A DNA stretch of 64,000 nucleotides from a bacterium. Its GTDB lineage: Bacteria > Oederibacteriota > CAKKQC01. Below, in pieces: positions 2,373 through 23,029 of the stretch (the first letter of the stretch is position 1; each line of letters starts with the position of its first letter). Below the pieces are notes generated by a model. It was not told the origin of the DNA. It worked only from the letters and a program-made list of their open reading frames with translations, and did no database searches. The DNA lies in assembly GCA_919901855.1 (NCBI GenBank), contig CAKKQC010000041.1, positions 5,088-69,087 on the forward strand, read 5' to 3'. The position numbers and the translations under genes are program-made.

Positions 2373-3184
2373 ATGAAGCCCCGGACGTGCTCCGCCGCCG
2401 CCGCGTATTCGGCTTCGGTCGTCAGATGCTCGAGCATGAGCGGCGTGTCCGGATCCAGCGTCGCGAGGGAGTCGAGGTACGCCCGGAAGTCCAGCCCCCC
2501 GCGGCCGGGTGCCACCTCGGTCAGGTGTACGATCGCCTCGTCGCTCATGGCGACGTCCTTGGCGTGACAGCTCTTGATCCGGTTCCCGAATTGCCCGACG
2601 AAGTCGCGGATGAACCCGCCGGTGTCGGCGAAACGCTCCGCCGAGTTGATCATGTTCACGGGGTCGAAGTGGACTCCGAACGCGGCGCGGTCCACGGCCC
2701 GCAGGAGCCGCGCCTGGCTGGCGGGCGAGTCCGGCGGGACCCAGTACATGCACTCGAGCGTGTAGGCCGCCCGCCGAGGGCGGACGGCATCGACGATCCG
2801 GCGCACGGTCTCGACGATGAGGTCGAAGGTCGCCGCCGAGTAGTTGTCGGGATGCGGTCCGTCCCACTTCGCCGGATGCCGCGACCCCGCGATGTTGACG
2901 CAGCACCGGGCCCCGATCCGCTCCGCGAGGTCGAGCCGGGCGATGCTCAGCTCGACCGCCTTCCGCGCGATCTCGGCGTCCAGGCTGATCGGGTTGCTCC
3001 ATGCCCCGACCTCGGCGATGACGAGACCGGCGGCCGCTGCCGCCTCCGCGTAGGCGCGGACGGTCGGCTCGTCCGCGGTCTCGTCCACGGGACAGTACGT
3101 GGCGGTGTAACCGGCGCGCACGTGGGCTTGCGCCCATTCGCCCGGGTCCTGCCAATCACCGAAGATCGGTCCGCCCAATCTCAT
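2369..3184 (-). CDS. sugar phosphate isomerase/epimerase (xylose isomerase-like TIM barrel)
   Basis: ATG at 3184 (MRLGGPIFG) lies 1 nt after the upstream stop and is preceded by GGTGGTGAG. The sequence resembles the AP-endonuclease-2/xylose-isomerase fold family throughout (CVNIAGS, ECMYW, HFDPVN, CHAKD). Confidence 0.8.
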   Translation of the reverse strand: MRLGGPIFGDWQDPGEWAQAHVRAGYTATYCPVDETADEPTVRAYAEAAAAAGLVIAEVGAWSNPISLDAEIARKAVELSIARLDLAERIGARCCVNIAGSRHPAKWDGPHPDNYSAATFDLIVETVRRIVDAVRPRRAAYTLECMYWVPPDSPASQARLLRAVDRAAFGVHFDPVNMINSAERFADTGGFIRDFVGQFGNRIKSCHAKDVAMSDEAIVHLTEVAPGRGGLDFRAYLDSLATLDPDTPLMLEHLTTEAEYAAAAEHVRGFM

Positions 3185-6100: not shown

Positions 6101-7097
6101 GGCCCTCGATCCGGAACTCGCGGAACCCGAACCGGTCGTTGAGTTCGTCCGTGAAGCCCGGGCCCTCGGCCCTGAGCCGCAGCGTGTAGAGGAACGGCCG
6201 GCCCGCCTCCCAGAGGATGGGATCCCGCCACTCCCACTCGAGCCGCACGGTCTGGGCGCTCACGGCCGCCACCGCGGCGTCCCCGGTGAAGACCCGGGCT
6301 GGTTGGCCCGCCGAAGCCGCAGGCTTCGCCGAGGGGTCCGTCTTCGGACCCCGGATCTCGGCCGTGAACCGGACCGTCCCCGCCGCCGCCACGTCGGCCA
6401 GGTCCACCTCGAGGACGAGCGACCTCGCCCGGACCGAGGTCCGGATGAAGACGCCGTCCAGGCGAGCGCCGGCCGGCCGGGATTCCAGGATCACGTCGCC
6501 CGCCAGCCCGCGCGCCTCCACGTCCGCGGCAGTCGAGGACGCGGTCACGAGGAGGCCCAGGGCGGCGGTGCGGCCGGGAAGCACGCGGTCCGTGATGTCC
6601 AGCTCGCCCCCGGGCCACGCGATTCCGCCCGCCTCGACGCCGTCCACGTAGACCGTGGCCTGCGCGGACGGCCGCACGACGCGGAGCACGATCCGGCGGG
6701 ATTTCCACTCCCGGGGCACCGTCACCTCGCGCTCGTAGCGGCCCGCGGCGAGCCCCCGCCAGTCGGGTGCCTCCCACGGGGTGCCCGTCGCCGCCAGCGG
6801 GCCCTCGAGGTTCCACCGGGGCCAGTCCGCGAAGCCCCAGGTACCCGGCACGCGAAGCCAGCCGGATGTGGATGAGCCGGACCGGCCCGCCCGGAATCGC
6901 CACAACCCGTTGAGCACCTTCCGCGCGCGCGCGGGAGCCAGGATCTCGACGGGCGTCAGGGCCCAGGCCGCCTCGGTTGCTGTCCGGAACGCCGTCGCGG
7001 CATCCGGCACGGCGGATTTCGCTCCCAAGCCCTCCGCTGCCGCGCATTCTCCCGCCAGGGCGACGGAGAGCAGGATCAGCGGGACGGCCCGGGTCAT
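3186..7097 (-). CDS. large secreted glycoside-hydrolase-like protein (GH2-type sugar-binding N-terminal region)
   Basis: ATG at 7097 is preceded by GGGGGAGAG. Signal peptide MTRAVPLILLSVALAGECAAA. The N-terminus has the GH2-like jelly-roll pattern (LNGLWRFR..., IVLRVV..ATVYVDGVEAGG). The remaining ~900 aa are not confidently assigned. Confidence 0.75.
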   Translation of the reverse strand: MTRAVPLILLSVALAGECAAAEGLGAKSAVPDAATAFRTATEAAWALTPVEILAPARARKVLNGLWRFRAGRSGSSTSGWLRVPGTWGFADWPRWNLEGPLAATGTPWEAPDWRGLAAGRYEREVTVPREWKSRRIVLRVVRPSAQATVYVDGVEAGGIAWPGGELDITDRVLPGRTAALGLLVTASSTAADVEARGLAGDVILESRPAGARLDGVFIRTSVRARSLVLEVDLADVAAAGTVRFTAEIRGPKTDPSAKPAASAGQPARVFTGDAAVAAVSAQTVRLEWEWRDPILWEAGRPFLYTLRLRAEGPGFTDELNDRFGFREFRIEGRDFLLNEHPIRLRPFVWLDEAEVAGARDCIGRVSEGLLGTGYNLLELWPTDHATPGRVHFRELWADAADERGLLLMYPALSLDSYIGWDGGTDRAWGAWEAAMVREWKTIRNHPSVVILVSTANRFGYTDDLNPLRLGNSRTLAMASRRAGDEVGRRLIETIRRHDSTRPLTSHEGGAVGDFQAANCYLDLIPLQEREEWLSAWEQHGDRPVMAVEFGTPLSCTFQRGRCAYGENRVSEPLMTEFCAIYFGTDAYRLEPASYRAMIAAKFRHDQVYDWVSGGRDEFDYHPAHQRLQALFNRQTWRSWRGWGMAGGMIPWEWGHGFRWPGGTFAAAPPEPGRTGSWTPSVKKAGCLGFRPGGLEPTEAGRALFEVSRPQLAWLAGPQDAWPAKDHLFGAGETVHKTLAMANDGPAAAGVEVSWIVDIGPGRIAWGKKGESVPAARTLFLPIDFEMPAAVAGMVSGTIFLEISAGGEVTRDAFPVRVFPPVRRPADRPEVLLFDPEGATKDWIERLGWKTRRWDGGNAPGRILVVGRHALDRGTRLPGSLAAFAETGGRLILMGQDPEWLRRRAGFRVARHVSRRAFPVPSPGFAGLTADVDGETLRDWRGAGTLVPATADVALDRGDEGSPPYGWHWGNRGSVTSAAIEKPHRSGWTPILEAEFDLAYTPLMELAVGEGLAIWCTLDLEGRVGSEPAADLLASRLLEHARAVPARPRAAQTVYLGGAPGEALLRNVGLRFTRTFRTDRAPGLLVVAADAPLTRVDLDRRLAAGWRLLLLPRPAGDLPFAFRAAGTTGFAGSLDVPAWPECRGLSASDLRLRAPVAATVLIDGPEVGAGGLLGRVTSRFGSAILIQLTPDQLEADRLTYLRYSSWRLTRTLAQLLANLGGEFEVDRRSLDWGRKAAGRPASRQDSWMALIGRPARPESAVRQAPPDAESGGGDEGGGGPPDFYVPGLRTDFVLGDDPYRYYRW

Positions 7098-7110
7098 GGC
7101 TCTCCCCCGG

Positions 7111-9117
7111 TCAACCCCGGACGCGGATCGGCATGACGATGGCCTGGTAGCCGTTGAACAGGAGGGCCTTCTGGATGGAGAGCGCGGTCTGGCTGTGCAG
7201 GAGCGCGCTCGTCCAGGTCTCACGCTCGAAGACCAGCTTGCCGACGAAGAAGACCGTGTCCCGGAACTCGTTCGCGATCTCGGAACAGAGCTCCTCGAGC
7301 GCCTCCAGCCGGTCGACGTTCAGCGCGTACCGGTATTCGGTGTGGAACCCGAGCCGCCGGCCCAGGTCCGCGTACTTCTCGAGGTCGGTCTTCACCGTGT
7401 CCTCGAGATGGTGGAGCGCGTCCACGCCCTTGAACTGGCTCGAGTCGATCGTGCCGACCTCGACGAAGACGACGTTCTTGAAGCGCTCCGGGAACAGCTT
7501 CAGGATCGAGAAGAGCGTGTGGATGCCCAGCCCGTTGTACCCGGACACCATGAGGACCGCGGTCGGCGCGGAGGTGTTTTTGCGCGGCACCCGGTGCTTC
7601 GACGCGGAGAGATGGATCGTCGTGAGGAGGTCGTCGAGCTTCTTGAGCTGGGCCCGCACCCGCCGGTAATGGGTCTTCACGAGCAGGCAGGCGCCGATCA
7701 TGGCTCCCGTGAGCAGGAAGACGGCCCAGGCTCCCTCGCGAATCTTGATGTATGCGGTGAATACCAGGATCGTCAGCGTGATCACGAGGCCGCCGCCGTT
7801 GACGATGAAGGGCCGCAACCACCGCTGGCCGGACCCCCGGACCTGCAGCCAGTGGCGGCACATGCCGAGCTGGGAGAGGGTGAAGGTGATGAACACGTTG
7901 ATCGAGTAGATGATCACCATGACATCCACCCGGGCGTGCGTAACGAAGATCACGGCGGCCGACGTGGCCGCCATGACCACGATCCCGTCCTGGTTCACGA
8001 GCCGGTCCGAGAGGTTCGCGAACCGGCGGGGCGTCCAGGAGTCGGTGGCCATGCTCGCCAGCACCTGCGGGCCGCTGATGAACCCCGCCTGCGCCCCGAC
8101 GATGAGGAGCGCCGCCTCGGAGAGCAGCGCCAGGATCACGGCCGCGTGCCCCAGCGGCATGTTCCACGGGCGCCAGCCCTCCCACAGGTGCTGGAACAGC
8201 ACGGCGTTCATCGTGCGGCCGGGCTGGTGGTGGATCTCGTGCAGGAGGTAACAGATGAGGAGGCCGCCGGCCGTGAACGCGAGCGAGAAGGCCATGTACG
8301 TCATCGTGCCCTTGCCGGTCTCCGCGCGAGGCTCCCGGAGCACCGGAATCCCGTTGCTCACGGCCTCCAGTCCGGTGTAGGTTCCGCCGCCGACCGAGAA
8401 GGCCCGCATCAATATCATGAAGGTGCCGAACAGGCCGACGCCCTGGATCAGGACGTTCGTCTCGTGGGAGCTCTCGTACAGGATGCCACCCGTATCCGTA
8501 CCCCTCATGAGGATGCCCATGAGGATGACCGCCACGTGGGTGACGACGAAGATCAGGAAGATCGGGGTCAGCGTGAGGATGGACTCCTTGAGGCCCCGGA
8601 GGTTGAGGATGAAGAGCAGGAACAGGAGGACGAGGGCGGCCCACATCTTCCAGGGCTGCCAGGCCAGGGGCAGGAGGCTGAAGAACGCGTCCGCGCTGCT
8701 GGCCATCGACACCGAGATCGTGAGCACGTAGTCCACGACGAGCGCCGAGCCGGAGACGAGACCCGCCGAGGTCCCGAGGAACCGGGTGGCCACGAGGTAG
8801 CCGCCGCCCGCCCCCCCGCTCGCGAAGAGCTCGATGATCTGGACGTACGAGGCCGCGATCGCGAAGACCGCGAGCGCCACGAGGCCGACGAGCGGCAGGG
8901 TCAGGCACGTGTTCGGCCCCAGCGCGAGGTAGGCGGCCTCGGGGCCGTAGCACGAGGACGACAGCCCGTCGGCGCCCATCCCGATCCAGGCCAGCACGGC
9001 GACGAGGGAGGTGGTGTGGAAGATCCTGACGTCGAGCGGGTTCTTGGCCGCCCCGATCACGAATTCCTTGATCCGGGTGGCGACCGAACGCTCGGAATCG
9101 CCGCTATGAAGCCCCAT
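7111..9117 (-). CDS. APC-superfamily permease with C-terminal cytoplasmic domain
   Basis: About 12 hydrophobic helices with an APC-like N-terminus (GMGADGLSSSCYGPE), followed by a ~190-aa soluble tail. Coding G+C is lower than in neighbouring genes. Confidence 0.85.
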   Translation of the reverse strand: MGLHSGDSERSVATRIKEFVIGAAKNPLDVRIFHTTSLVAVLAWIGMGADGLSSSCYGPEAAYLALGPNTCLTLPLVGLVALAVFAIAASYVQIIELFASGGAGGGYLVATRFLGTSAGLVSGSALVVDYVLTISVSMASSADAFFSLLPLAWQPWKMWAALVLLFLLFILNLRGLKESILTLTPIFLIFVVTHVAVILMGILMRGTDTGGILYESSHETNVLIQGVGLFGTFMILMRAFSVGGGTYTGLEAVSNGIPVLREPRAETGKGTMTYMAFSLAFTAGGLLICYLLHEIHHQPGRTMNAVLFQHLWEGWRPWNMPLGHAAVILALLSEAALLIVGAQAGFISGPQVLASMATDSWTPRRFANLSDRLVNQDGIVVMAATSAAVIFVTHARVDVMVIIYSINVFITFTLSQLGMCRHWLQVRGSGQRWLRPFIVNGGGLVITLTILVFTAYIKIREGAWAVFLLTGAMIGACLLVKTHYRRVRAQLKKLDDLLTTIHLSASKHRVPRKNTSAPTAVLMVSGYNGLGIHTLFSILKLFPERFKNVVFVEVGTIDSSQFKGVDALHHLEDTVKTDLEKYADLGRRLGFHTEYRYALNVDRLEALEELCSEIANEFRDTVFFVGKLVFERETWTSALLHSQTALSIQKALLFNGYQAIVMPIRVRG

Positions 9118-9176
9118 ATTGATTGAGAACCCTATGCCTCCCGGGGGGGGCTGTCAAGGGGCCGTGGATAAAGCCT

Positions 9177-10169
9177 TCACCAGGCGTATGCCTCGGGAGC
9201 CCGCCCGCCCGGTCCCGGGAAGATCCCGTCGAGCGTCTTGACTGTCGCCGGCGTCAGCGTGATCTTCAGCGCCCGCTGGGCCCCCTCGAGCTGCTCCATC
9301 GTGCGCGGCCCGATGATCGGGGCGGTGACGGCCTTCTGGTGCAGGAGCCAGGCCAGCGCCACGTGCGCGGGCTGCTCCTTGAGCTTGCGGCACAGGGCCT
9401 CCCACGGCACGAGCTTTGCCCGCTCCTTCTTCACACGCTCCTTCGCCCAGCCCTCGGACCGGCGCCCCCCCTCCACCTTCCCCAGGATGCCACCGAGCAG
9501 TCCGCTGGCCAGCGGGCTCCAGGGAATCAGCCCCAGTCCGTAGGCCTCGCACGCGGGGATGACCTCGAGCTCGATCATGCGGGCGTTGAGGTTGTACAGG
9601 CTCTGCTCGCACACGAGGCCCATGAACCCACGCCGCGCCGCCGCCTCGTTCGCCTGGGCGATGTGCAGCCCGGCGAAGTTGCTCGACCCGACGTAGATGA
9701 CCTTGCCCTCGCGCCGGAGCTGGTCAAAAGCCTGCCAGATCTCCTCCCACGGCGTCTCGCGGTGGACGTGGTGCATCTGGTAGAGGTCGAGGTAGTCGGT
9801 CTTGAGGCGCCGGAGGCTCGCCTCGCAGGCCTTCCGGATGTGGAGGGCCGAGAGCCGGGATTCGTTCGGCCAGTCCCCCATGTCGCCGTAGACCTTCGTC
9901 GCCAGGACCACCTTGTCGCGGCGCCCGCCCCCCTGCGCGAGCCAGCGGCCCACGATCTGCTCCGTGATCCCCTCGCCCTTCTTCCAGCCGTATACGTCGG
10001 CCGTGTCGAAGAAGTTGATCCCGAGCTCGAGCGCGCGATCCATGATCGCGAAGCTGTCGGCTTCGGTCGTGAGCGGGCCGAAGTTCATCGTCCCGAGGCA
10101 CAGCCGGCTGACCTTGAGTCCCGTCCGCCCGAGCTTCGTGTATTGCATGGATGCCTTCTGGTCGGCCAT
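9177..10169 (-). CDS. aldo/keto reductase
   Basis: ATG at 10169 is preceded by GGGGAGG. MQYTKLGRTGLKVSRLCLGTMNFG, DTADVYG and DYLDLYQMH are AKR hallmarks. The long track ORF 9177..11096 is an artefactual extension. Confidence 0.9.
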   Translation of the reverse strand: MADQKASMQYTKLGRTGLKVSRLCLGTMNFGPLTTEADSFAIMDRALELGINFFDTADVYGWKKGEGITEQIVGRWLAQGGGRRDKVVLATKVYGDMGDWPNESRLSALHIRKACEASLRRLKTDYLDLYQMHHVHRETPWEEIWQAFDQLRREGKVIYVGSSNFAGLHIAQANEAAARRGFMGLVCEQSLYNLNARMIELEVIPACEAYGLGLIPWSPLASGLLGGILGKVEGGRRSEGWAKERVKKERAKLVPWEALCRKLKEQPAHVALAWLLHQKAVTAPIIGPRTMEQLEGAQRALKITLTPATVKTLDGIFPGPGGRAPEAYAW

Positions 10170-10224
10170 GGTGAATCCTCCCCTGCACCGAGTGTGATCG
10201 GCCTCCAGTCTACCACCCGGCCGG

Positions 10225-10254
10225 TTGACGGCGGAGGGACGCGGGGTGTACCGT
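10225..10254 (+). promoter_or_regulatory. promoter-like TTGACG-18-TACCGT, 8 nt before the aac(3)-type ATG (leaderless type)
   Basis: TTGACG at 10225-10230 and TACCGT at 10249-10254, with the ATG at 10263. No Shine-Dalgarno sequence in between. Confidence 0.4.
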
Positions 10255-10262
10255 TGCGGCAC

Positions 10263-11063
10263 ATGGATGCATACCCCACCCCGGAGGCCGCCGGAGCTGC
10301 CGGCGCGTCCGCTTCGGTCGCCCGGATCAGCCGGGACCTGGTCGCGCTGGGCGTCCGGCGCGGCGGGCTCCTTCTCGTGCATTCCTCGCTGAAGTCCCTG
10401 GGGCCGGTGCCCGGCGGGCCCGAGACCGTGATCCGGGGAATGCTCGACGCCCTCGGACCTGACTCCACGCTCCTGCTCCCGGCGCTGAGCTACAGCTTCG
10501 TCACCCCGCAGGACCCGGTCTTCGACGTCCGCGTGACGAAGTCCTGCGTCGGCGCGATTCCAGAGCACTTCCGGACGAGAACGGGCACGCTCCGCAGCGT
10601 CCACCCCACCCACTCGGTGGCCGCGACGGGGCCGCGGGCGCAGGCCCTTCTCGGAGACCATCTCGAGGACACGACGCCCGTGGGGCCGCACTCGGCGTTC
10701 CGCAAGATGCGCGACCTTGGCGGCCAGCTCCTCTTCCTCGGGTGCGGGATGGAGCCGAACACGTCCATGCACGGCGTCGAGGAGCTGGTCGAGCCGCCGT
10801 ACCTGTACGATCCCGCGATCGACTACCGGCTCACTCTCGCCGACGGGACCACGATCGCGAAACGCTACCGGCCGCACGGGTTCGCGAACGTCCATCAGCG
10901 CTACGACCGGATGGAGGAACTCCTGGAGCCCAAGGGCCTGCTCAAGGCGGGCCCGGTACTGGCGGCTAAGGCGCACCTCGTCGACGCGGGGCCGGTGTGG
11001 GAACTGGGCGAGGCCGCGCTCCGGCTCAACCCCTGGGCGTTCGTGGACCGGAAAGACCGGTAG
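10263..11063 (+). CDS. AAC(3)-family aminoglycoside N-acetyltransferase-like protein
   Basis: LLLVHSSLKSLGPVPGGPETVIRGMLDALGPDSTLLLPALSY is the typical AAC(3) N-terminal signature. This is the real part of track ORF 9123..11063. Confidence 0.85.
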   Translation: MDAYPTPEAAGAAGASASVARISRDLVALGVRRGGLLLVHSSLKSLGPVPGGPETVIRGMLDALGPDSTLLLPALSYSFVTPQDPVFDVRVTKSCVGAIPEHFRTRTGTLRSVHPTHSVAATGPRAQALLGDHLEDTTPVGPHSAFRKMRDLGGQLLFLGCGMEPNTSMHGVEELVEPPYLYDPAIDYRLTLADGTTIAKRYRPHGFANVHQRYDRMEELLEPKGLLKAGPVLAAKAHLVDAGPVWELGEAALRLNPWAFVDRKDR

Positions 11064-11076
11064 ACCGCGATCCGGC

Positions 11077-11307
11077 CTACTGCGCCTGGTAGACACTCCC
11101 CACGGGGGATGCCGAAATGGCCTTCCTTGCGAAATCGGACTTCATCTTCTCGAGCGACTTCATCGTTTCGGCGGAGAAATAGGCTTCTCCGCATTCGCCG
11201 CAAACCTCGGCTTCGACATCAACGAGAAGCCGGTCGGTTCCGACCTTCAGCTCCGCCACCGACCGGGATGGCCTGACTTCTCCCTGCTTGCAGATGACGC
11301 ATTTCAT
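11077..11307 (-). CDS. YgiT-type zinc-finger (MqsA-like) antitoxin candidate
   Basis: MKCVICKQGE...VCGECGEAYF forms two CxxC pairs. Its ATG overlaps the stop of the upstream gene (ATGA). Confidence 0.85.
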   Translation of the reverse strand: MKCVICKQGEVRPSRSVAELKVGTDRLLVDVEAEVCGECGEAYFSAETMKSLEKMKSDFARKAISASPVGSVYQAQ

Positions 11308-11636
11308 GACTGCTTCCTCCGTTTGAAGCCCGGTTCCCAGAGTGCCGGATCGGGCTCGTAGGTTGTGACGACCACGAGTTGGGCTTCGTCCATCACCGGT
11401 GCGCAGACGACGTGCAATGGCCTGCCCGCCGCCGTTCGTCCGAGCATCAGGCAACTGGCATACGGCCGGTCATCGGGATACTCCTCGATGATCTCGCCGA
11501 CGTCCAGTGCCTGAACTATCTCATCCACCTTGATGATACCTCGGCTCTCCCGCTCCATTTCCAGCCGCGAATGGTTCGAGAACTTCAGCTTGCCGAGACA
11601 TTGCTTTACCGCGAGGATATCCATGTCGCCCATCAT
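11304..11636 (-). CDS. DUF4258-family toxin candidate
   Basis: The family pattern is present: GEIIEEYPDDRPYASCLMLG, GRPLHVVCAP, VVVTTYEPDPALWEPGFKRRK. It is translationally coupled to the zinc-finger gene. Confidence 0.85.
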   Translation of the reverse strand: MMGDMDILAVKQCLGKLKFSNHSRLEMERESRGIIKVDEIVQALDVGEIIEEYPDDRPYASCLMLGRTAAGRPLHVVCAPVMDEAQLVVVTTYEPDPALWEPGFKRRKQS

Positions 11637-11637
11637 C

Positions 11638-11666
11638 AGTCTGACCGCCGTTCATTGGAGTGTCAA
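11638..11666 (-). promoter_or_regulatory. promoter-like TTGACA-17-CAGACT upstream of TA cassette 1
   Basis: On the minus strand, TTGACA is at 11666-11661 and CAGACT at 11643-11638, directly before the ATGATG start region. Confidence 0.4.
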
Positions 11667-11678
11667 CCGCCCGACACC

Positions 11679-11789
11679 GCCGGCCCGATACTCGCGGCGA
11701 CGGCGCACCTGGTCGATTCAGCGCCGGTCTGGGAGCTGGGCGTGGCCGCGCTCCGGCGCGACCCCTGGGCCTTCGTGGACCGGAAGTAG
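11679..11789 (+). pseudogene. orphan diverged copy of the aac(3)-type gene 3' end (last ~36 codons plus stop)
   Basis: It aligns colinearly with 10947-11063, about 80% identical by hand count with one 6-nt in-frame gap. It reads AGPILAATAHLVDSAPVWELGVAALRRDPWAFVDRK-stop. Nothing resembling the rest of the gene lies upstream of it. Confidence 0.7.
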
Positions 11790-11804
11790 GTCCGGGGGCC
11801 TCTT

Positions 11805-12974
11805 CTACTTCATCGCGGTGAAGACGGCGGCGACGAGCGCCGCGATCGTGATCCCGCCCAACACCGCCCACGACTTGTCGACCGCCACGGTGGTCCGCGA
11901 GATCTCGAGGCGGGCCTGCTTCCTCGGCGCGGACGCGTCCGCCGCCGAGAGGGGCGGAGCCGCCACCGCGGTGACGTCCGCACCGGAACCCACCGCGACC
12001 CGGCGGCCCTCGACGTTGACCTGCGTCGCCCCCCGCCAGAGCGTCAGGACCATCTTCGAGTCCGGCGCGCCCGTGAGCATCCGCCGGACCTCGAGCCAGG
12101 GACGGTTCCACGTCGCATCCCCCCCGATCCCGAGGATCATGTCGTAGTCCAGGATTCCGGTCTTCCACGCCTGCGAGTGGTCGTCGATCCTGACGACTCC
12201 GGGGTAGAAGCTGTGCCCGTCGTTCGTGAAGATCTCGAAATTCAGCCCCGGCAGGTCGCCCCCCTTGGTCGTGAGCTCCGCCATCGCCGTCTCCGGGAAC
12301 TGGTGGACGATCATCCAGGAAACGAGCTGGGAGGCGATCCGGACGTCGTTGGTCCGCGAAATCCCGGCGCCGGTCCCGACCCAGACCTCGGCCAGGGTCT
12401 TGCCGTCCAGGAGGCTCAGCGTGACCGTGGCCGTGAACCTGCCCGCCGCGGCCGGCGGCTTCGTCCTCCCACGGGGCGGATAGCCGGGGAGTTGCGCGAC
12501 CGCGTACGTGGGATCGGGCATGGTCCCCCAGCCCCACGTGTCCGCGGCGGCCAGGGCCGCCAGCGACGCGGGCGGCGTGGGCAGCGTCTTCCCGGGCTGC
12601 CACTCCGGCGCCTGGATCACGGTCGTGCGCTTGACCCCGCGCGTGAACTCGATCGACGCGTCAACGCCGACGACGAAGTCGGGGTTCTCGCCCATCTTCA
12701 CGAACCGGTACCCGTCGCGCTCGAAGAGGTTCCGCACCGAGAACAGGACCGCGCGCTGGTCGGCCTCGGTCTTGAGGGTGGCCGCCGGGTTCACGGCCGC
12801 CAGCGGGTAGACCGAGAAGGTCACGTACTTGAACGAGGAAAGCTCCGGGGACTTGTACTCGCGCACCGCCGGGCCGATGTCGATGGTCACGGGAGAGAGG
12901 CCGTGCAGGGAGGCGCAACCCGCGAGCAGGGCGCCGGGGAGCAGGAGGCGCGCCAGGCGTCCGCAGGTCGTCAC
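11805..12974 (-). CDS. lipoprotein with PDZ-like domain and C-terminal hydrophobic anchor
   Basis: The GTG at 12974 gives (M)TTCGRLARLLLPGALLAGC, with lipobox LAGC. TAGAAT lies 7 nt upstream, matching the leaderless pattern. A PDZ-like stretch GVVRIDDHSQAWKTGILDYDMILGIGG is present, and the C-terminus has SWAVLGGITIAALVAAVFTA. Confidence 0.7.
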   Translation of the reverse strand: MTTCGRLARLLLPGALLAGCASLHGLSPVTIDIGPAVREYKSPELSSFKYVTFSVYPLAAVNPAATLKTEADQRAVLFSVRNLFERDGYRFVKMGENPDFVVGVDASIEFTRGVKRTTVIQAPEWQPGKTLPTPPASLAALAAADTWGWGTMPDPTYAVAQLPGYPPRGRTKPPAAAGRFTATVTLSLLDGKTLAEVWVGTGAGISRTNDVRIASQLVSWMIVHQFPETAMAELTTKGGDLPGLNFEIFTNDGHSFYPGVVRIDDHSQAWKTGILDYDMILGIGGDATWNRPWLEVRRMLTGAPDSKMVLTLWRGATQVNVEGRRVAVGSGADVTAVAAPPLSAADASAPRKQARLEISRTTVAVDKSWAVLGGITIAALVAAVFTAMK

Positions 12975-12981
12975 GAAACCT

Positions 12982-12987
12982 ATTCTA
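12982..12987 (-). promoter_or_regulatory. -10-like TAGAAT, 7 nt upstream of GTG 12974
   Basis: Member of the recurrent TAnnnT-(6-9 nt)-start pattern. Confidence 0.4.
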
Positions 12988-13057
12988 CACTCCCGCCCGC
13001 GTCGAACCCGTCGACCCCTTGGGGCGGAGGGTTCGACGACGATTGCGTCCGCAATCG

Positions 13058-13927
13058 CTAACAACCTTCGAGGAACCGGCCGCCGGCCAGCAGGCCCGCC
13101 TGTTCGGTTTCGGTCCGGTCGTTGAAGTTCTCGTCCTCGAGCTCGATGGAGACCATGCCCCTATACCCGGCCCCCGCCAGGACCCCGAACGCCTCGGGCC
13201 AGTTCATGACCCCGTGACCCGGGATCGTGTACCGCCACACGCGATCCCCGAACCCGTGGCCCTTGCCGAACGTCGCGGGCTGTTCGTGGCCGAATTCGTA
13301 GAGGGCGTCGGCGTAGAGGGCCGTGTCCTTGCCGTGCACGTGCACGACCTGGGTCGCGAACTCGCGCAGGAACCGCATCGGATCGATCCCCATCCGGATC
13401 AGGTGCGAGGGATCGAAGTTGATCCCCATGGCCTTCGACGGCACCGCCTTGAAGAACGCCCGGAAGCCCTCGGGGGTGCAGACGAGCGCCCCGGGCCCCG
13501 GCCAGCCCTCGATGGCGAGCGAGGCCTTCGCCGCCTCGAGCACGGGCGCGAGCGCCGCGAAGCTCTCGACCATGTACCCGAAGTTCTCGCTCCGGGGTTT
13601 CGCAGCGTCCTCGGGGAGCATGACGAGGAAGTGGTTGACGGGCCCCAGCACGGCGCAGGCCTTGACGTAGGCCGTGTTCTTCTCGATCGCGGCCTTCCGC
13701 TTCCCGGCGTCGGGCGACAGCATGGCGTTCCACTCCGCCAGGTCCACGGAGCCGACCCGGAGCCCGGCGGCGGCCACCGTCTTGCCGGCGGCATCCCCGT
13801 CGCGGCCCACATCGATTCCCTCGAACCCGTTTGCCTTCGCGTACGCGATCACGCCCGGGAGGTCCTTGTTCCACCCCGACCAGCCCCGCCGGAACCCGAT
13901 GCCGAACCCGCCCGTCCGCGTCTGCAT
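13058..13927 (-). CDS. sugar phosphate isomerase/epimerase (xylose isomerase-like TIM barrel)
   Basis: ATG at 13927 is preceded by AAGGAGG. Family-like stretches include INFDPSHL, HVHGKD and SIELED. Confidence 0.85.
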   Translation of the reverse strand: MQTRTGGFGIGFRRGWSGWNKDLPGVIAYAKANGFEGIDVGRDGDAAGKTVAAAGLRVGSVDLAEWNAMLSPDAGKRKAAIEKNTAYVKACAVLGPVNHFLVMLPEDAAKPRSENFGYMVESFAALAPVLEAAKASLAIEGWPGPGALVCTPEGFRAFFKAVPSKAMGINFDPSHLIRMGIDPMRFLREFATQVVHVHGKDTALYADALYEFGHEQPATFGKGHGFGDRVWRYTIPGHGVMNWPEAFGVLAGAGYRGMVSIELEDENFNDRTETEQAGLLAGGRFLEGC

Positions 13928-17337: not shown

Positions 17338-20300
17338 TCCGCCGGTCTGTCGTGGCCGCGCTCATCTTCGCCGCGTCGACGGCGCGGGCCGGCATTACCG
17401 TGTCGAACTCGTCGTTCGAGGAGGGGCTCAAGACCCCGGCCGGGTGGACGCTCGAGGGGCGGGGCGGGGCCTGGCTCAGGGGCGACGCCGCGACGGGGCG
17501 CCGGGCCGTCGCGGTGTCGGGCACCGGGGTGACCGAGAGCGCCTGGCTGTCGGCGCCCGTGTCCATCGAGCCGTCGAAGCTCTACGAGGTCCGGTTCCGG
17601 GCCCGTAGAGTGGCCGGCGGCGGCGGCGGCACGCCGGTCACCGGTCCGGCGTTCTGCAACCGCGACGTCGCCATCGCCTCGACCGTATGGACCGGCTACG
17701 AGTCGGTTTTCGCGACCCCGCCGGCCATGACCCCCGCGGACCGGCGCCTGCACTTCGGCCAGTGGCGCATGAACGGCGCGGTCGCATACGACGACATCCG
17801 CGTGGTCCCCGCCGAGCCCGTCTACGTCCGCTCAGGCGCGTTCGTCCTCGGGGAGGGCGAGAGCCTCTCGGGCACCCGGTACGCGTTCACGGCGCCTTTC
17901 GACACCCCGGGCCGGAACTCGAGCCGTCCCCTCGCGGGCTGGCGCGCGCGGTTCAACACGAACCGCTGGGTGCTGGGGGCGGGCGACGAAGTCGTATACC
18001 GGCACGCGGTGGGCGACCGCCTCCAGACCGGCGCCGTCGCGGACGTCGCGGTCACGTACTACGAGGGCGGCGAGCTCGCCGTCGAAGCCTCCCGCGACGG
18101 CGCGACCTGGCAGGAGCTTGGGGTCATCGCCGGGAAGTCCCGCCACGCCTTCCCGGTGCCCGCTTCGCTCCTGCCCGCGGCCGAGATCTGGATCCGGCTC
18201 CGGGTCCGCACCGGGGCCGAGCGCGGCCCGGGCGCCGATCCCGGCTCCCTCCAGGTCGGCGCCTACGGCTACCGCTCCGTCCTCGCCGGCCCCCCCGTGA
18301 CCCTCACGGGCCGCACGGCGTTCGTGGCGGTCACGGGCACCGACCCCCGGCTCAGCGTCTCGTTCGACTCGCTCGGCGACCAAGTCCCGAACGGGAACGA
18401 CGTCATCAAGTGCACGGTCACGAACCTGACGGCGAAGCCCCTCGCGGTCCGGGCAGAGGCGCGCACCGTGCGGGACGGCCGCGCCCAGCCGGAGGCCACC
18501 TTCGGCAACACCCTCCAGCCCGGCCCCAACGTGCGGACGTACCCGTACCCGGTCCCGGGCCCGGGCGACTACACGATCACGCTCAAGTACGGCCCCGGGT
18601 ACACGTACGAGGCCGAGACCAGGTTCCGGGTCCCCGACCTCTACGAGGAGAGATTCGGCGAGCTCCTGCCCGACTCGATGCCCGGCGTCGGGCTCTGGTG
18701 GGCGTCGGCGGGCTGGAAGGTGAACGAGACCCGCGGCCTGCCCGGTGGGCAGGGCGGTGCGGTGCGGATTTCGGCGGCGCGCAACGAAACCGAAGCCGCC
18801 CAGATCGTGATCCGCCCCGAGCTGGCCGTGACGAACCTGCGGGTCGAGGCGGGTCCCCTGCGCCGCGCCCCCGGCGCCGACGGCCCCGGCATGATCCCGG
18901 CCGCCAACGTCGAGATCCTGCGCGTGGCCTACGTCCCTGTCGAGGAACCGACCGACGCCCGCGGGTTCCGCGGCCGCTGGCCCGACCCCCTCCCGCCGTT
19001 CACGGCCCCCGTGAACCTGGAAGCGGGCCGGAACTATCCGGTCTGGGTCCGCGTCCGCGTGCCGAAGGACGTGGTCCCCGGGGTCTTCACGGGCACGATC
19101 CGGTTCTCGTCGGACGCCTGGCACGCCTCGGCCACCCTCCTCGTCGAGGTCTACGACTTCGCCCTGCCCGACCGGATGACGCTGACGACGGCGTTCGGGT
19201 TCGACGCCCGGACCGTGTTCCGGTACCAGAAGCTCGAGCGCGAGGCCGACCGCAGGTCCGTACTCGACCGCTACTACGCCGACTTCGCCGCGCACCACGT
19301 CAGCCCGTATGCCTACGGCACCGCCCCGCTCGACCCCATCCGAACCGAGTGGCCGGGCGCGGGCGCCTGGACCGGCGGACGACGCGACCAGGAGGTAAAG
19401 TTCGCCGGGCGCAGTTCCCTCCTCGTCGAGGACGACAGCCCGACCAGCCAGCCCTCGGCCACCTACCGGACCTCGCTTCCGATTCCGAAGAAGGGCCTGC
19501 GGCTCGCCTTCCAATACCGGACGAAGACGCCCGGCCAGGCCTTCCTCGTATCGCTCTCGCACGACGACGCGTCGGGCGAGTGGATGCCGGGCCGGAACCT
19601 GGACATCTCCCTGACGGGGACCGGCGAGTGGCAGTCCTTCGACCGCACGATCACGGCATTCCCCGCGGGCGCGAAGTCGGTCCGGCTCGCGCTCTACGCG
19701 TCGCTGTGGCAGGACGACGGGTCGCCGCAGGGGGCCGTCTGGTACGACCAGCTCTCGTTCCGGGACGCGGGAAACGGGAAGGAACTGGCGCCCGGCGGCG
19801 ACTTCGAGCCGCTCGAGCCCGCCGCCCTCGCGCCCGTGATCGACTGGAGCGCCTGGGACCGCGAGATGGGACGCCAGTTCGCCGCGTACCACTGGAACTC
19901 GTTCTCGTTCGACGTGCCGGGACTGGGCGGCGGATCGTTCCAGAGCCGGACCGAACCCAGCCTGCTCGGGTACAGCGAGGGAACTACCGAGTACCAGACC
20001 GCGATGCGGAACTGGTGCGCGGCGGCAGAGGCCCACCTCCGGGAGAAAGGGTGGCTTAAGGATGCGTTCGTCTACTGGTTCGACGAGCCCGAGCCGAGGG
20101 ATTACGCCTTCGTCAGCAACGGGTTCCGCAAGCTCAGGGAGTACATGCCCGGCATCCGCCGGATGCTGACCGAGCAGCCCGAGCCCGCGCTCCTCGGCGG
20201 CCCGAACGTCTGGTGCCCGGTCCTCGACGCCTACGACCGCCCGGCCATGCACGCGCGGCAGACCCTGGGCGAGACGCTGTGGTGGTACATCTGCACCGGC

Positions 20301-20852
20301 CCCAAGGAGCCCTACGTCGGCGAGTTCATCGACCGCGGGTCCCCGGACCTCCGGATCTGGTGCTGGCAGACCTGGCAGGAGAACGTGTCGGGAATCCTGA
20401 TCTGGGCCACGGACTACTGGACCTCGCCGCTCGCGTACCCGGACGGTAACGCGCCCCAGAACCCGTACGTGGACGCCATGAGCTGGACCAACGGGGCCGG
20501 CTCCCCCGGCACCCGCGACCCGTGGGGCAACGGCGACGGCCGGTTCCTGTACCCGCCCGAGGCGGCGGCGGACGGGCATCCCGCAGGACCGGTCCTCGCC
20601 GGGCCCGTGGACTCGATCCGGTGGGAGCACCTGCGCGACGGCATCGAGGACTACGAATACCTGGCGATCCTCAAGCGGCTCATCGATGCCAAGGGATTCC
20701 AGCCGGGCCTGCGCAAGGGGTACGACGCGTACCTCGAGGTGCCCGCCGCCCTCTCGCGGAACCTGACCTCGTACGCGCACGACCCCACCCCGCTCGAGCG
20801 CCGCCGCGACGAGGTCGCGCGGATGATCGAACAGCTCGGCAAGCTGCCCTGA
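17334..20852 (+). CDS. secreted DUF4091-type glycoside-hydrolase-like protein with CBM-like inserts
   Basis: The GTG at 17334 overlaps the upstream stop (GTGA). Signal peptide IRRSVVAALIFAASTARA. The C-terminal GDGRFLYP...SIRWEHLRDGIEDYEYL is the DUF4091 signature. Track ORF 16230..20852 is over-extended. Confidence 0.8.
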   Translation: MIRRSVVAALIFAASTARAGITVSNSSFEEGLKTPAGWTLEGRGGAWLRGDAATGRRAVAVSGTGVTESAWLSAPVSIEPSKLYEVRFRARRVAGGGGGTPVTGPAFCNRDVAIASTVWTGYESVFATPPAMTPADRRLHFGQWRMNGAVAYDDIRVVPAEPVYVRSGAFVLGEGESLSGTRYAFTAPFDTPGRNSSRPLAGWRARFNTNRWVLGAGDEVVYRHAVGDRLQTGAVADVAVTYYEGGELAVEASRDGATWQELGVIAGKSRHAFPVPASLLPAAEIWIRLRVRTGAERGPGADPGSLQVGAYGYRSVLAGPPVTLTGRTAFVAVTGTDPRLSVSFDSLGDQVPNGNDVIKCTVTNLTAKPLAVRAEARTVRDGRAQPEATFGNTLQPGPNVRTYPYPVPGPGDYTITLKYGPGYTYEAETRFRVPDLYEERFGELLPDSMPGVGLWWASAGWKVNETRGLPGGQGGAVRISAARNETEAAQIVIRPELAVTNLRVEAGPLRRAPGADGPGMIPAANVEILRVAYVPVEEPTDARGFRGRWPDPLPPFTAPVNLEAGRNYPVWVRVRVPKDVVPGVFTGTIRFSSDAWHASATLLVEVYDFALPDRMTLTTAFGFDARTVFRYQKLEREADRRSVLDRYYADFAAHHVSPYAYGTAPLDPIRTEWPGAGAWTGGRRDQEVKFAGRSSLLVEDDSPTSQPSATYRTSLPIPKKGLRLAFQYRTKTPGQAFLVSLSHDDASGEWMPGRNLDISLTGTGEWQSFDRTITAFPAGAKSVRLALYASLWQDDGSPQGAVWYDQLSFRDAGNGKELAPGGDFEPLEPAALAPVIDWSAWDREMGRQFAAYHWNSFSFDVPGLGGGSFQSRTEPSLLGYSEGTTEYQTAMRNWCAAAEAHLREKGWLKDAFVYWFDEPEPRDYAFVSNGFRKLREYMPGIRRMLTEQPEPALLGGPNVWCPVLDAYDRPAMHARQTLGETLWWYICTGPKEPYVGEFIDRGSPDLRIWCWQTWQENVSGILIWATDYWTSPLAYPDGNAPQNPYVDAMSWTNGAGSPGTRDPWGNGDGRFLYPPEAAADGHPAGPVLAGPVDSIRWEHLRDGIEDYEYLAILKRLIDAKGFQPGLRKGYDAYLEVPAALSRNLTSYAHDPTPLERRRDEVARMIEQLGKLP

Positions 20853-20856: not shown

Positions 20857-21393
20857 ATGGCCCCGGAAGATAGGATCCACCCGGTCTCGCGGCGGGACGG
20901 GATCGATTACTGGCGCGAGACTACATGTCCCGAGTGCGACGCGCCGGTCTTCGTGCTCGTGGACGAGCCCGGCGCCGCACCCGTCGACGACCTCGACACC
21001 TTCAAGCGGCATGTCTGCATGCCCCTGTTCCCCGTGGACCTCGGGAAGATCCCGCCCGGGACCGCGGAGGCGTTCCGATCCGCCGTCGAAGCCGCGTTCG
21101 GCAAGAAGCTCGTCCGGTTCCCCGGGGTCTTCCGGCGCAAGGGGCTGCCGGTGTTCTTCACGCCCGAGTGGCAGCCCGCGCTCGGCCACGTGCCCCTGTT
21201 CTCGAAGTCCGACGTCCACCGGCCGTTGGACGCGGCCTCACCCGTCTTCGTGCTGGTCCTGCCCCATCTCCAGAAGCACTTCACGAAGGGCGCGACCTCG
21301 TCGTTGCGCAAGTACTTCTTCTCCGCGAAGGGGATCACGAAGCACGAGCGCCACGGCCGCCGCCACGTGATCCTCTGGAAATGGCCGAGGTAG
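20857..21393 (+). CDS. hypothetical protein (CPEC...HVC motif)
   Basis: It starts 4 nt after the previous stop. Third-position G+C is high like the neighbouring genes. No family recognised. The last ~22 codons are duplicated at 22094-22159. Confidence 0.6.
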   Translation: MAPEDRIHPVSRRDGIDYWRETTCPECDAPVFVLVDEPGAAPVDDLDTFKRHVCMPLFPVDLGKIPPGTAEAFRSAVEAAFGKKLVRFPGVFRRKGLPVFFTPEWQPALGHVPLFSKSDVHRPLDAASPVFVLVLPHLQKHFTKGATSSLRKYFFSAKGITKHERHGRRHVILWKWPR

Positions 21394-21411
21394 GAAGAAC
21401 GCCCGCCGACC

Positions 21412-21759
21412 CTACCCCGTGAGTTCCGGTGTGTCGTGAACCCGGATGCGGCCGGGCTCGACGATCCAGAGATTGCCGCCTGGCGAGTCGTTCCGTAACG
21501 CCCTGATGACCTGTTCGACCAGCAGGCGATACGCCTCAATCGACGGCTTGGGATGCCGGAGAACTATCAGGCCGGCATGCCGACCGGCCGGATGCTCGAG
21601 GATATGGCCGAATCCGCGGTCTCCGGTCAGGATGACTCTCCCCTCCCGCATGCAGGCTTCCACGATCTTCTCATCGGGAGACCCCTTCAAGCCTTCTTCG
21701 GCCACCGTGGTCACTTCGTGGCCCGCCTCAACCAAGAGGGAGATATACTCCGGGCTCAA
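21412..21759 (-). CDS. DUF5615-family PIN-like toxin candidate (true start possibly CTG at 21789)
   Basis: The family pattern is present: EAGHEVTTV, ILTGDRGFGHI. The track start is TTG 21759. The conserved LKLDEN motif is encoded in frame just upstream, with only a CTG available as a start (see finding). Confidence 0.75.
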   Translation of the reverse strand: MSPEYISLLVEAGHEVTTVAEEGLKGSPDEKIVEACMREGRVILTGDRGFGHILEHPAGRHAGLIVLRHPKPSIEAYRLLVEQVIRALRNDSPGGNLWIVEPGRIRVHDTPELTG

Positions 21760-21785
21760 GTTCTCGTCGAGCTTGAGGCGGAGGG

Positions 21786-22019
21786 TCAGGGAGCCGCCTC
21801 GACGGGGAGATCGTGCTCGCGCGCCAGTTCGGCCGCGTAGGCCAGGCAGGCCTGCACATCCTCACGCACGATCGACGGATAGGCGGCCAGCACGCGATCT
21901 ACGGAATCGCCGTTGGCGACAAACTGAATGATCATCCACGCAGGAATCCTCGTTCCCCTGATGCACGCCTGCCCATGACAGATGGCCGGGTCGACCGAAA
22001 TACGATCCAACGGCTTCAT
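21786..22019 (-). CDS. DUF433-family antitoxin candidate
   Basis: ISVDPAICHGQACIRGTRIPAWMI...AYPSIVREDVQACLAYA is the DUF433 pattern. ATG 22019 is preceded by GGAAGG. The longer GTG 22052 start would include the -10 box. Confidence 0.85.
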   Translation of the reverse strand: MKPLDRISVDPAICHGQACIRGTRIPAWMIIQFVANGDSVDRVLAAYPSIVREDVQACLAYAAELAREHDLPVEAAP

Positions 22020-22042
22020 GTTCTCATCGCCTTCCTGGTGCA

Positions 22043-22066
22043 ATTCTACCACGCGCCAATTGGCGC
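22043..22066 (-). promoter_or_regulatory. TAGAAT -10 box plus perfect 14-bp palindrome GCGCCAATTGGCGC upstream of the DUF433 gene
   Basis: On the minus strand TAGAAT is at 22048-22043. The palindrome at 22053-22066 occupies the -35 region, consistent with a TA autoregulation operator. Confidence 0.4.
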
Positions 22067-22093
22067 ACCTCGATGCGGAGCCACTTTCCCTCA

Positions 22094-22159
22094 GCGAAGG
22101 GGATCACGAAGCACGGGCACCACGATCGCCGTCACGTCATCCCCCGGAAGCGGCCGCGG
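22094..22159 (+). repeat. diverged direct copy of 21325-21390 (3' end of hypothetical gene 20857..21393)
   Basis: Gap-free 66-nt alignment with 55/66 identical by hand count, including a 22-nt perfect block GCGAAGGGGATCACGAAGCACG. It reads SAKGITKHGHHDRRHVIPRKRPR versus SAKGITKHERHGRRHVILWKWPR. Confidence 0.7.
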
Positions 22160-22177
22160 CAGGGTCCCTCGGCGGCG

Positions 22178-23029
22178 CTACCGAATCGCCTCCTGCAGAA
22201 CGTTCCACATGGGCTTGGATCTGGGGAGCATGTCCTCGGTGAAGAACCACCAGAAGTAGCCGCCCACATAGCGGGGGGCGTCGACCTTGAGCCCGTAGTA
22301 CGTGCGCAGGTGCGCGGGCTTGAGCTTCGCCTTCTCGTGGCCGACCTCGCCGAAGCCGACCTTGGCGCCCGGAAACTCGGCCCCCAGCCGCCGGAAGACG
22401 GGACTCCAGTCTGAAAGAGACGGGCAGTAGACGCTGAGCAGGACGTAGTCCACGTTGCGCCGGAGTTCCGGGGTCAGGTACTTCGCCACCCACTCCCAGA
22501 CCGCGCCGCGCGTCTCGTCCCCGCAGTCCCAGTACAGGGTCAACGCCGTCCGGCCGCCCCGGGCCTTAATGAACGAGTTCGCCCATACTACTTTGGCGGC
22601 CGTGTCCTCGTGCTTCCCCAGCCAGTCGCCGTTCACCTCGTTCCCGACCTCCCAGATGTTCACGAGGTCGCGCAGGCCGTGGTAGTAGTCGCGCGTGGCC
22701 GCCTGAAAGCTCGCGAGGTCGACCTTCTTCATGTAGTACGAGTCGCACAGCTCGCCCATGATCCACGCGTGCCTGGCGATCCGGACCATCGCCGGCCGGT
22801 ATTCCGCGGCGGTCGTCCCGGGATCGAAGACGATGCGCGCCGTCAGCCGGGACCGGAAGCCCTGGAGCGCGGCCTCGATCTCGTCGATCCGCCCGACGCT
22901 GTCGATCGTGATCCCCCAGACCGGGGCCGGCACGTCCGGGGGGCCGGACCGCCGGACCACGGCCAGCACGGCCAGCGCGAGCACGAGCACTCCCGCGAAT
23001 ACGGCGATCGCCAGTCGCGGTCCCGTCAC
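22178..23029 (-). CDS. membrane-anchored clan GH-A-like glycoside hydrolase (TIM barrel)
   Basis: The GTG at 23029 overlaps the upstream stop (GTGA). N-terminal TM helix LAIAVFAGVLVLALAVLAVV. WEVGNEVNG (acid/base-like NE) and GFGEVG (nucleophile-like E) are present. Confidence 0.7.
   Translation of the reverse strand: MTGPRLAIAVFAGVLVLALAVLAVVRRSGPPDVPAPVWGITIDSVGRIDEIEAALQGFRSRLTARIVFDPGTTAAEYRPAMVRIARHAWIMGELCDSYYMKKVDLASFQAATRDYYHGLRDLVNIWEVGNEVNGDWLGKHEDTAAKVVWANSFIKARGGRTALTLYWDCGDETRGAVWEWVAKYLTPELRRNVDYVLLSVYCPSLSDWSPVFRRLGAEFPGAKVGFGEVGHEKAKLKPAHLRTYYGLKVDAPRYVGGYFWWFFTEDMLPRSKPMWNVLQEAIR

Follow-up and report, generated by a model that had tools for sequence, protein, structure and literature searches.

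We analyzed a window of 64,000 nucleotides (positions 5088-69087 of contig C41) from a 4.68-Mb assembly with 91 contigs and 69% G+C, which originates from the Hainich groundwater well H43. In the following, "the window" refers to this whole stretch, and positions are counted from its first nucleotide. It contains a small toxin-antitoxin (TA) cassette, here termed cassette 2, which is located between two convergent host genes and is bracketed by a gene-side copy (R1) and an orphan copy (R2) of the 3' end of one of these genes. The locus comprises the following features:

20857..21393, plus strand: host gene, conserved hypothetical, 178 amino acids, intact, without Pfam match
21301..21394, plus strand: R1, the gene-side repeat copy, covering the last ~31 codons of the 178-amino-acid gene through its stop codon TAG (21391-21393)
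21412..21759, minus strand: DUF5615 / PIN_10-like gene, putative toxin, 115 amino acids, Pfam PF18480
21786..22052, minus strand: DUF433 gene, putative antitoxin, Pfam PF04255; GTG at 22052, likely start ATG at 22019, giving 77 amino acids
22043..22066, minus strand: putative control region of the TA operon, consisting of a -10-like TAGAAT (antisense of 22043-22048) and a palindrome, read by eye
22070..22163, plus strand: R2, the orphan copy, in the same frame as the gene 3' end and decaying; stop codon TAG changed to CAG
22178..22984, minus strand: convergent downstream host gene, 268 amino acids, called as a gene on Hainich contigs and originally adjacent to the 178-amino-acid gene

Both cassette genes match their families above the Pfam cut-offs, with E = 1.3e-16 and 60.9 bits (cut-off 23.8) for PF18480 in 21412..21759 and E = 9.3e-24 and 83.5 bits (cut-off 23.6) for PF04255 in the DUF433 gene, for which an independent contig has a 77-amino-acid gene call. 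The two genes are co-oriented on the minus strand and 26 nt apart, and the stop of the DUF5615 gene lies 18 nt from the stop of the host gene. We infer that the DUF433/DUF5615 pair represents a type II TA system, with the roles of toxin and antitoxin assigned putatively from family membership only. Upstream of these genes, a perfect 14-nt palindrome, GCGCCAATTGGCGC, is located at 22053-22066, and 22043..22066 might act as the control region of the operon; CAATTCTACC also adjoins the orphan copy in an unrelated cassette on contig L016 (see below). An earlier reading of this DNA (the original prediction) had described the interior as a promoter with a palindrome and two minus-strand TA genes. 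The genes and the palindrome stood, but the promoter did not, since a strict sigma-70 consensus scan of the cassette interior detected none and the TAGAAT motif was read by eye only. The strict scan also found no terminator-like site in the cassette. The lower G+C content of the interior, which had been noted as well, amounts to 0.62-0.65 compared to 0.69-0.75 in the flanks. As already remarked in the original prediction, no recombinase gene is present inside or adjoining cassette 2.

The repeat itself was verified by alignment. The stretches 21325-21390 and 22094-22159 align without gaps at 55/66 identities, and the identical 22-mer GCGAAGGGGATCACGAAGCACG opens both 66-nt copies (21325-21346 = 22094-22115), as had been counted by hand. 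With a repeat finder, the pair widens to 21301-21394 / 22070-22163 (94 nt, 78% identity, spacing 769), leaving an insert of ~675 bp (21395-22069) between the 94-nt repeats. The previously given spacings of 769 for cassette 2 and 732 for a second cassette of the window (cassette 1) were both reproduced. As a chance check, all 66-nt windows were compared at all offsets of 300-3000 within the 64-kb window, amounting to 168 million comparisons. In this exhaustive scan, at least 55/66 identities were reached at four offsets only, namely 732 (cassette 1), 769 (cassette 2), 962 (tandem paralogs at 44.9-46.5 kb) and 2932 (a peptide motif common to two proteins at 60.4 and 63.4 kb). A chance origin of the cassette 2 repeat is excluded, and the repeat occurs in the genome as this one pair only. 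With 22 mismatches spread over 95 nt, a perfect run as long as 22 nt has a probability of 0.028, a mild departure from randomness.

The homology of R1 with R2 and with the alleles of empty sites stops 1 nt past the stop codon. Across the orthologs of the 178-amino-acid protein the C-terminal motif LRKYFFSAKG..KHER..V..WKWP is kept, whereas R2 reads MRSHFPSAKG..KHGH..V..RKRP, with the conserved Trp, Trp and Leu replaced. When six alleles of the gene end were compared, 14/22 differences between R1 and R2 were unique to R2. A variable/template repeat pair as in diversity-generating retroelements was ruled out, since all four bases of either copy are affected by the 22 differences, without specificity for adenine; no reverse transcriptase is found in the interior of cassette 2. 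A multiplying, transposon-like family was likewise ruled out. Cassette 2 has no nucleotide match elsewhere in the genome, the best paralog of the DUF5615 protein is 35% identical, and the ten further DUF433 genes are each at most 49% identical.

Two related metagenome contigs, L027 and L035, carry the same gene junction without a cassette. A lack of empty sites in relatives had been named as a refuting outcome in the original prediction, which withstood this check. The ortholog of the 178-amino-acid gene and its convergent neighbour lie 59 nt apart in L027 (78% amino-acid identity), while the stop codons of the convergent genes in L035 (85% amino-acid identity) overlap as CTAG. Each of these empty sites has a single copy of the repeat. 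Since R2 and the DNA beyond it are colinear with both, the cassette and one extra copy of the gene end were inserted at a junction with little or no neutral space. Cassette 2 is thus a horizontally acquired TA insertion in a place where two convergent host genes meet with hardly any space between them, and it very probably entered as a recombinase-less insertion that left a duplicated gene end. Relatives in GTDB, at ~60% amino-acid identity, were too distant for nucleotide-level empty sites, and among the other assemblies from the source site every long-enough contig carries the cassette, so that no polymorphism was seen.

The same gene end is occupied by different cassettes in other lineages. 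Orthologs of the 178-amino-acid protein from other metagenomes show the following, with amino-acid identity to the window:

P0001 lineage, 92%: a different DUF5615/DUF433 pair after the stop
P0002 lineage, 85%: empty after the stop
P0003 lineage, 79%: HicA/HicB after the stop
L027 lineage, 78%: empty after the stop
P0004 lineage, 76%: MNT-type cassette after the stop

Including the window, these six lineages form one clade in the protein tree (99/97 support), with four cassettes (MNT, HicAB, DUF433a and DUF433b) and two empty lineages. Therefore, cassettes must have been gained, swapped or lost several times at this site. The four cassettes are unrelated in sequence; even the DUF5615/DUF433 proteins of P0001 are only 29% and 40% identical to those of the window, without nucleotide similarity. 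Orphan copies accompany these cassettes as well (L018/L019/L028). In the HicAB lineage, the orphan (L018, 3846-3900, 56 nt) is 86% identical to the gene end of its own genome and retains the stop codon, and the P0001 contig (L016) ends just where an orphan begins. The first nucleotide of the L016 orphan is that of the 22-mer, and the L018 orphan begins 6 nt further in; overall, the left edges of the three orphans (window, L016 and L018) lie within ~32 nt of one another. On L018, an Rce1-like/CPBP gene (PF02517, 3919-4734) is located between the orphan and the conserved convergent gene, and this gene occurs neither in the window nor on the empty-site contigs. In the more distant genome G003, which belongs to another genus, VapBC is found at the same gene end. 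Here, a convergent VapBC-like pair follows the 178-amino-acid ortholog (L009, G003:C549, 953-1668), the PIN open reading frame (ORF) overlaps the gene end by 34 nt, and no orphan copy is detectable at the site.

The second cassette of the window shows the same footprint as cassette 2, with the following organization:

10947..11785, no strand assigned: cassette 1
10947-11053: R1, the end of an AAC(3)-like gene
11077-11307, minus strand: MqsA-like gene
11304-11636, minus strand: DUF4258 gene
11679-11785: R2, stop codon retained

According to the repeat finder, its repeat spans 107 nt with 85% identity and a spacing of 732. In three sister lineages (L024, L025 and L032) the site is empty, with a convergent DUF4136/PDZ gene directly after the AAC(3)-like gene, and R2 of cassette 1 runs on into the same downstream sequence as these empty sites.

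To see how far this footprint extends, the genome was compared with itself by BLAST, retaining isolated pairs of 45-260 nt at a spacing of 300-4000 nt. This genome scan, proposed in the original prediction, yielded 42 isolated direct pairs and 2 inverted pairs (the latter counted before the isolation filter), making inverted pairs ~20 times rarer. According to frame-by-frame ORF tracing, at least 12 direct pairs are duplications of the 3' end of a long ORF. Their second copy is not preceded by the rest of the gene and in most cases retains a stop codon no more than a few codons away from that of the gene. Besides the two window cassettes, these are C2 35110, C6 291014, C9 1462, C10 212151, C41 72313, C60 15103, C22 87749, C30 64828, C62 2136 and C69 2209. 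The cargo assigned by Pfam is uniformly of the addiction or defence type and includes MNT/HEPN, HepT/MNT, PIN/Phd, UPF0175/DUF3368, HigB, HicA, AbiEii, DUF4258, DUF5674, three single AAA_14/DUF4143 ATPase genes and Uma2, which is the only nuclease-like cargo among the other cassettes. The notion that unrelated TA families share one footprint is therefore borne out by these gene-end duplications as well as by the other TA cassettes and orphans at the ends of the orthologs. Cassette sizes range from 0.7 to 2.3 kb, their orientation to the host gene varies, and the repeats are 47-218 nt long, each in a different target gene. Pair identity varies between 73 and 99%, indicating that the insertions differ in age. 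None of the at least 12 gene-end cassettes carries a recombinase; the genome encodes seven tyrosine recombinases, none of them on contig C41.

In each of the 11 scored pairs, the duplication has its outer boundary at most ~10 nt from the stop codon or ahead of it, and in none of the 11 does it reach into the neighbouring convergent gene. Such a boundary at the stop is not expected for random staggered breaks. Summed over the 11 pairs, mismatches at codon positions 1/2/3 amount to 31/30/68. Several pairs display a coding-like pattern (3/0/12 for C60 15103/16570, 3/0/6 for C9 1462/2482 and 3/4/10 for cassette 1), while cassette 2 shows the decay-like distribution 8/6/9. At the C22 site, the orphan keeps the family-typical tail and the gene-side copy has a novel one.

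The route that most likely produced this footprint is a single homologous crossover carried out by the recipient cell. In a donor lineage, the orthologous gene would be followed by the cassette immediately after its stop codon. A segment comprising the cassette and the final 50-220 bp of this gene would then circularise, either via recombination between an existing R1 and R2 or via an illegitimate joint. After entry of the circle into a related cell, one RecA-type crossover between the gene-end fragment and the resident gene end would integrate it, in the manner of a Campbell-type insertion-duplication. The host gene would stay whole, since a stop codon is part of the incoming fragment. In the product, R1 would consist of host sequence on the left and donor sequence on the right, and R2 of donor sequence on the left and host sequence on the right. 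A deletion by recombination between R1 and R2 would lose the antitoxin gene, so that addiction would keep the otherwise unstable structure while the orphan decays. Because the convergent genes abut or overlap and offer no neutral place for an insertion, only insertions that duplicate the gene end would survive, which would place the scar at gene ends. The position of the outer boundary at or before the stop in 11/11 pairs could be explained by a cassette that was first placed in the tiny spacer behind the stop and later moved with the adjoining gene end. Taken as a whole, this reading, that is a recombinase-less insertion with gene-end duplication including the homologous single-crossover route, has in our view an even chance of being correct.

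The coding-like mismatch patterns and the tails at C22 are in line with a donor allele as the source of the second copy, and several observations on the two window cassettes point in this direction as well. For cassette 1, functional homologs contain 6/7 of the amino-acid states by which R2 differs. The DAGP of the host clade (P0015/16/17) corresponds to DSAP in R2, the odd states sit in R1 rather than in R2 (RLNPW compared to RRDPW in the family), and derived changes are at least as many in R1 as in R2. As far as can be read from these alleles, the allelic states of the orphan argue against a true duplication of the target. The original host end was approximated by L032, the nearest allele from an empty site (88%). 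A chimera of R1-left and R2-right matches L032 at 14/17 informative sites, compared to 9 for R1 alone and 8 for R2 alone (permutation p = 0.029, breakpoint search included). A reciprocal mosaic of this kind would be expected if a circular donor with a homologous fragment had recombined with the host gene end in a single crossover. For cassette 2, the left part of R2 and L027 both read ATG-CGG (Met-Arg), L018 and L020 read ATG-CGC, and Leu is found in the host clade. The right part of R2 agrees with the sister allele at 3/3 sites where R1 differs from the sister. Furthermore, 63 mismatches in 448 nt (14%) separate the window from L016 ahead of R1, compared to 3 in 89 nt (3%) from its left edge on, where a 64-nt run identical in both starts at position 21305. 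The 22-mer (21325..21346, plus strand) sits where a crossover would have to be and is a candidate crossover or heteroduplex interval. Its proposed role as a crossover core is thus retained in part, as it is mildly non-random and suitably placed, but no common core exists across the 12 repeat units.

Other results weigh against the single-crossover route. Ordinary conservation of the gene end accounts for part of the likeness of R1 in the window and L016, with a corrected p of ~0.02. The mosaic of cassette 2 has no statistical support, 14/22 of its differences being plain decay of R2, and the low-powered polarity tests for this cassette gave p = 0.21 (Mann-Whitney) and p = 1.0 (permutation). 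An a priori polarity test for the reciprocal mosaic, combined over three cassettes, yielded p = 0.11. In cassette 1, the identity around the best breakpoint spans no more than 6 nt, a short stretch for RecA, and the divergence profile of the gene against the empty-site alleles shows no sharp step. The pairs on C10, C30, C21 and C18 are 98-99% identical and fit an in-situ duplication as well as a donor from the same population. Finally, neither a circle nor a deletion allele nor a donor carrying this cassette was seen in the assemblies examined, and the model leaves the formation of the first circle unexplained.

Among the alternatives, a strict insertion with long target duplication is an unlikely but serious candidate. 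Here, two breaks of the host DNA ~50-220 bp apart, arising as staggered nicks or by unequal joining of sister strands, would capture the cassette as filler; both copies would be host-derived and initially identical, and the orphan would decay. This agrees well with cassette 2, in which 14/22 differences are unique to R2, conserved residues carry non-conservative changes and the stop is lost, as well as with the four genome pairs of 98-99% identity and with the footprint described for restriction-modification genes, whose repeats often lie across start or stop codons (PMC2853133). However, an extension into the neighbouring gene would be harmless under such a duplication, yet the outer boundary stays at ~10 nt of the stop or before it in 11/11 pairs. 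Moreover, the orphan states of cassette 1 are allelic rather than random, with derived changes in R1 equal to or exceeding those in R2, and R2-left carries states foreign to the host clade in both window cassettes. We consider it rather improbable that the repeats represent a standing landing pad, in which R1 and R2 are older than the cassette and kept alike by occasional gene conversion, while TA cassettes are swapped between them by homologous exchange among related lineages. Such a pad would account for the orphan edges within ~32 nt in three lineages with different cassettes, for the ancestral Met codon in R2, which is older than the Leu common to the window and L016, for the unusual likeness of R1 between these two, and for the G at position 44 in both L018 copies, which is absent from the window and L016 alleles and shared with the empty site of L027. 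It is difficult to reconcile with orphans that are 78-86% identical to their own gene copy although third-position divergence among the lineages is near saturation (28-30%), with window and L018 orphans that differ at 18/64 sites and have one shared derived state only, or with two empty lineages within the same clade. In addition, the first entry of a new cassette between the copies is not explained by it.

Highly unlikely, in our assessment, is site-specific recombination, in which a tyrosine or serine recombinase encoded in trans would move integrase-less mini-cassettes whose site mimics a gene 3' end, provides a substitute end as in phage 21 and e14 at icd, and has the 22-mer as its core. 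The perfect 22-mer (p = 0.028), the hotspot with four cassette types, the seven tyrosine recombinases of the genome and the replacement of a 3' end through the stop codon, which resembles integrative elements targeting gene ends, could be cited in its favour. However, beyond the G+C-rich background no common k-mer or motif was found among the 12 repeat units or the cassette ends, repeats of 47-218 nt lie in a different gene each time, no recombinase is present in or near the cassettes on C41, and the four unrelated hotspot cassettes have no common attachment-site arm. For these reasons and in view of the varying orientation, a dedicated capture recombinase acting on a core site, as considered in the original prediction, is not supported; homologous recombination by the host fits the data better. 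With this reading, the restriction to gene ends would follow from selection against disruption of packed convergent genes together with TA addiction. It is scarcely credible that no insertion footprint exists at all and that the repeat is a conserved regulatory or terminator element, the remnant of a tandem paralog or a chance similarity. Two unrelated repeat pairs of similar strength, the tandem paralogs and the shared peptide motif, do occur in the window, but the repeat of cassette 2 is in frame with and homologous to the C-terminal coding sequence of the gene, the single copy in the empty-site relatives refutes this explanation, no terminator-like site was found and chance is excluded.

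The closest published counterpart is the insertion with long target duplication reported for restriction-modification genes (Nobusato 2000, Gene 259:99; Furuta, Abe and Kobayashi 2010, PMC2853133). In these cases, repeats exceed 30 bp, the inserts are smaller than 20 kb and lack mobility genes, empty sites exist in relatives, the repeats often lie across a start or stop codon while the target gene survives, and the mechanism is given as unknown (PMC2853133). A life cycle of insertion, repeat use and release was proposed, and Furuta et al. suggest DNA breakage by the restriction enzyme as the common property, without mentioning toxins (PMC2853133). The cassettes described here resemble them as small addiction-type units without mobility genes that are flanked by repeats of more than 30 bp and correspond to a single copy at the empty site. 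They differ in their cargo, which is TA, Abi, AAA_14/DUF4143 or Uma2 instead of restriction-modification, and RNA-targeting TA toxins lack the DNA breakage proposed for restriction enzymes. Furthermore, one boundary is always at the stop codon here, a multi-cassette hotspot exists, and at least one orphan is probably a different allele instead of a copy of the target. As to whether both copies are target-derived, cassette 2 shows mostly decay with a few mosaic-like informative sites, and cassette 1 shows allelic states. A literature search found no paper describing a gene-end scar for TA cassettes. The TA/defence cargo, the multi-cassette hotspot and the evidence for a travelling homology arm are new for a known but little-cited kind of insertion.

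Campbell-type insertion-duplication, in which a non-replicating circle integrates through a cloned 3' fragment of a gene, is a standard laboratory method. It likewise generates an intact gene, the insert and an orphan 3' fragment, relies on RecA of the host without an enzyme of the element, and is unstable unless selected; in contrast to the laboratory method, a natural route of this type for chromosomal TA cassettes would be only inferred here. Integrative elements with a replacement gene end, such as e14 and phage 21 at icd or genomic islands at the 3' ends of tRNA genes, also come to mind. As in e14 and phage 21, a diverged duplicate of the 3' end flanks the insert, and their element-borne copy, with many synonymous differences, restores the gene. 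However, those elements measure 10-40 kb and have their own integrase and one fixed core, whereas the present cassettes measure 0.7-2.3 kb, lack an integrase and occupy at least 12 targets without a common core. TA cassettes in chromosomal integrons are small and promoter-bearing and stabilise a recombination-prone structure (10.1101/2022.08.03.502626; PMC11023631). Different cassettes at one site are a shared feature, but the repeats here are direct and consist of host coding sequence instead of cassette-borne sites. No integron integrase is present on the contig; no search aimed at attC sites was made.

Further repeats were observed in the genome and in the window. On C18, a 164-nt repeat of 98% identity (64459-64621 / 65584-65747) surrounds an MNT-type cassette and comprises the 5' half of a tRNA-Met gene and ~130 nt upstream; the scar is therefore not confined to the 3' ends of protein genes. 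The pair C60 74712/75545 was rejected as a cassette pair, as it represents two tRNA genes. Contig C73 (20.8 kb, G+C 0.63) contains direct repeats of 40-170 nt at ~6000-13500 and 18400-20800 (82-97% identity, spacing 1-3 kb), which lie between small MNT-type and other cassettes and have related repeats on C64 and C71. This array may consist of stacked gene-end duplications or may be an integron-like array without integrase. Two of the seven tyrosine recombinase genes are located 0.1-1.3 kb from a DUF433 homolog (C12 105678-106494) and an MqsA-like homolog (C22 21903-23768), respectively, and some TA genes of this genome may hence travel with an integrase. Within the window, the repeats at 44907-46537 belong to two tandem paralogous genes with three repeat blocks (70-81% identity, spacing 962). 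The third window pair, 60444-60513 / 63376-63445 (70 nt, 84% identity), was ruled out as a cassette scar, since both copies encode the Pro/Ala-rich peptide EPAVAA..PPQAQ.RSEPAVA, common to an OmpA-like protein and a zinc-ribbon membrane protein. In addition, an ORF of 858 amino acids on the minus strand (579-3155) consists of at least nine copies of a 108-nt (36-amino-acid) repeat with 61-74% identity and looks like a Sel1/TPR-type repeat protein.

The spread of chromosomal TA systems is an old open question, as they are patchily distributed and clearly mobile but mostly found outside recognisable mobile elements. Since the same enzyme-less scar surrounds at least 12 selfish cassettes, these probably enter packed chromosomes via the cell's own recombination. 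If true, such a recombinase-free route would explain the patchy distribution of TA systems and would widen the largely overlooked observation of Kobayashi from restriction-modification genes to TA and defence cassettes, a far larger field. The diverged pseudo-3'-ends that annotators meet in compact genomes would be accounted for as well, and addiction would be tied directly to the persistence of otherwise unstable duplications. More tentatively, TA, Abi, AAA_14/DUF4143, Uma2 and restriction-modification cassettes could possibly form a general class of enzyme-less mobile units, which would use a conserved piece of a gene end as a portable homology arm, be integrated by the recombination of the recipient and be kept because their deletion kills the cell, so that scarred gene ends might turn into integron-like hotspots of unrelated cassettes without an integrase. 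This genome provides a good test bed for such a route, with twelve or so insertions that differ in age and a single gene end at which four cassette types and two empty sites are available.

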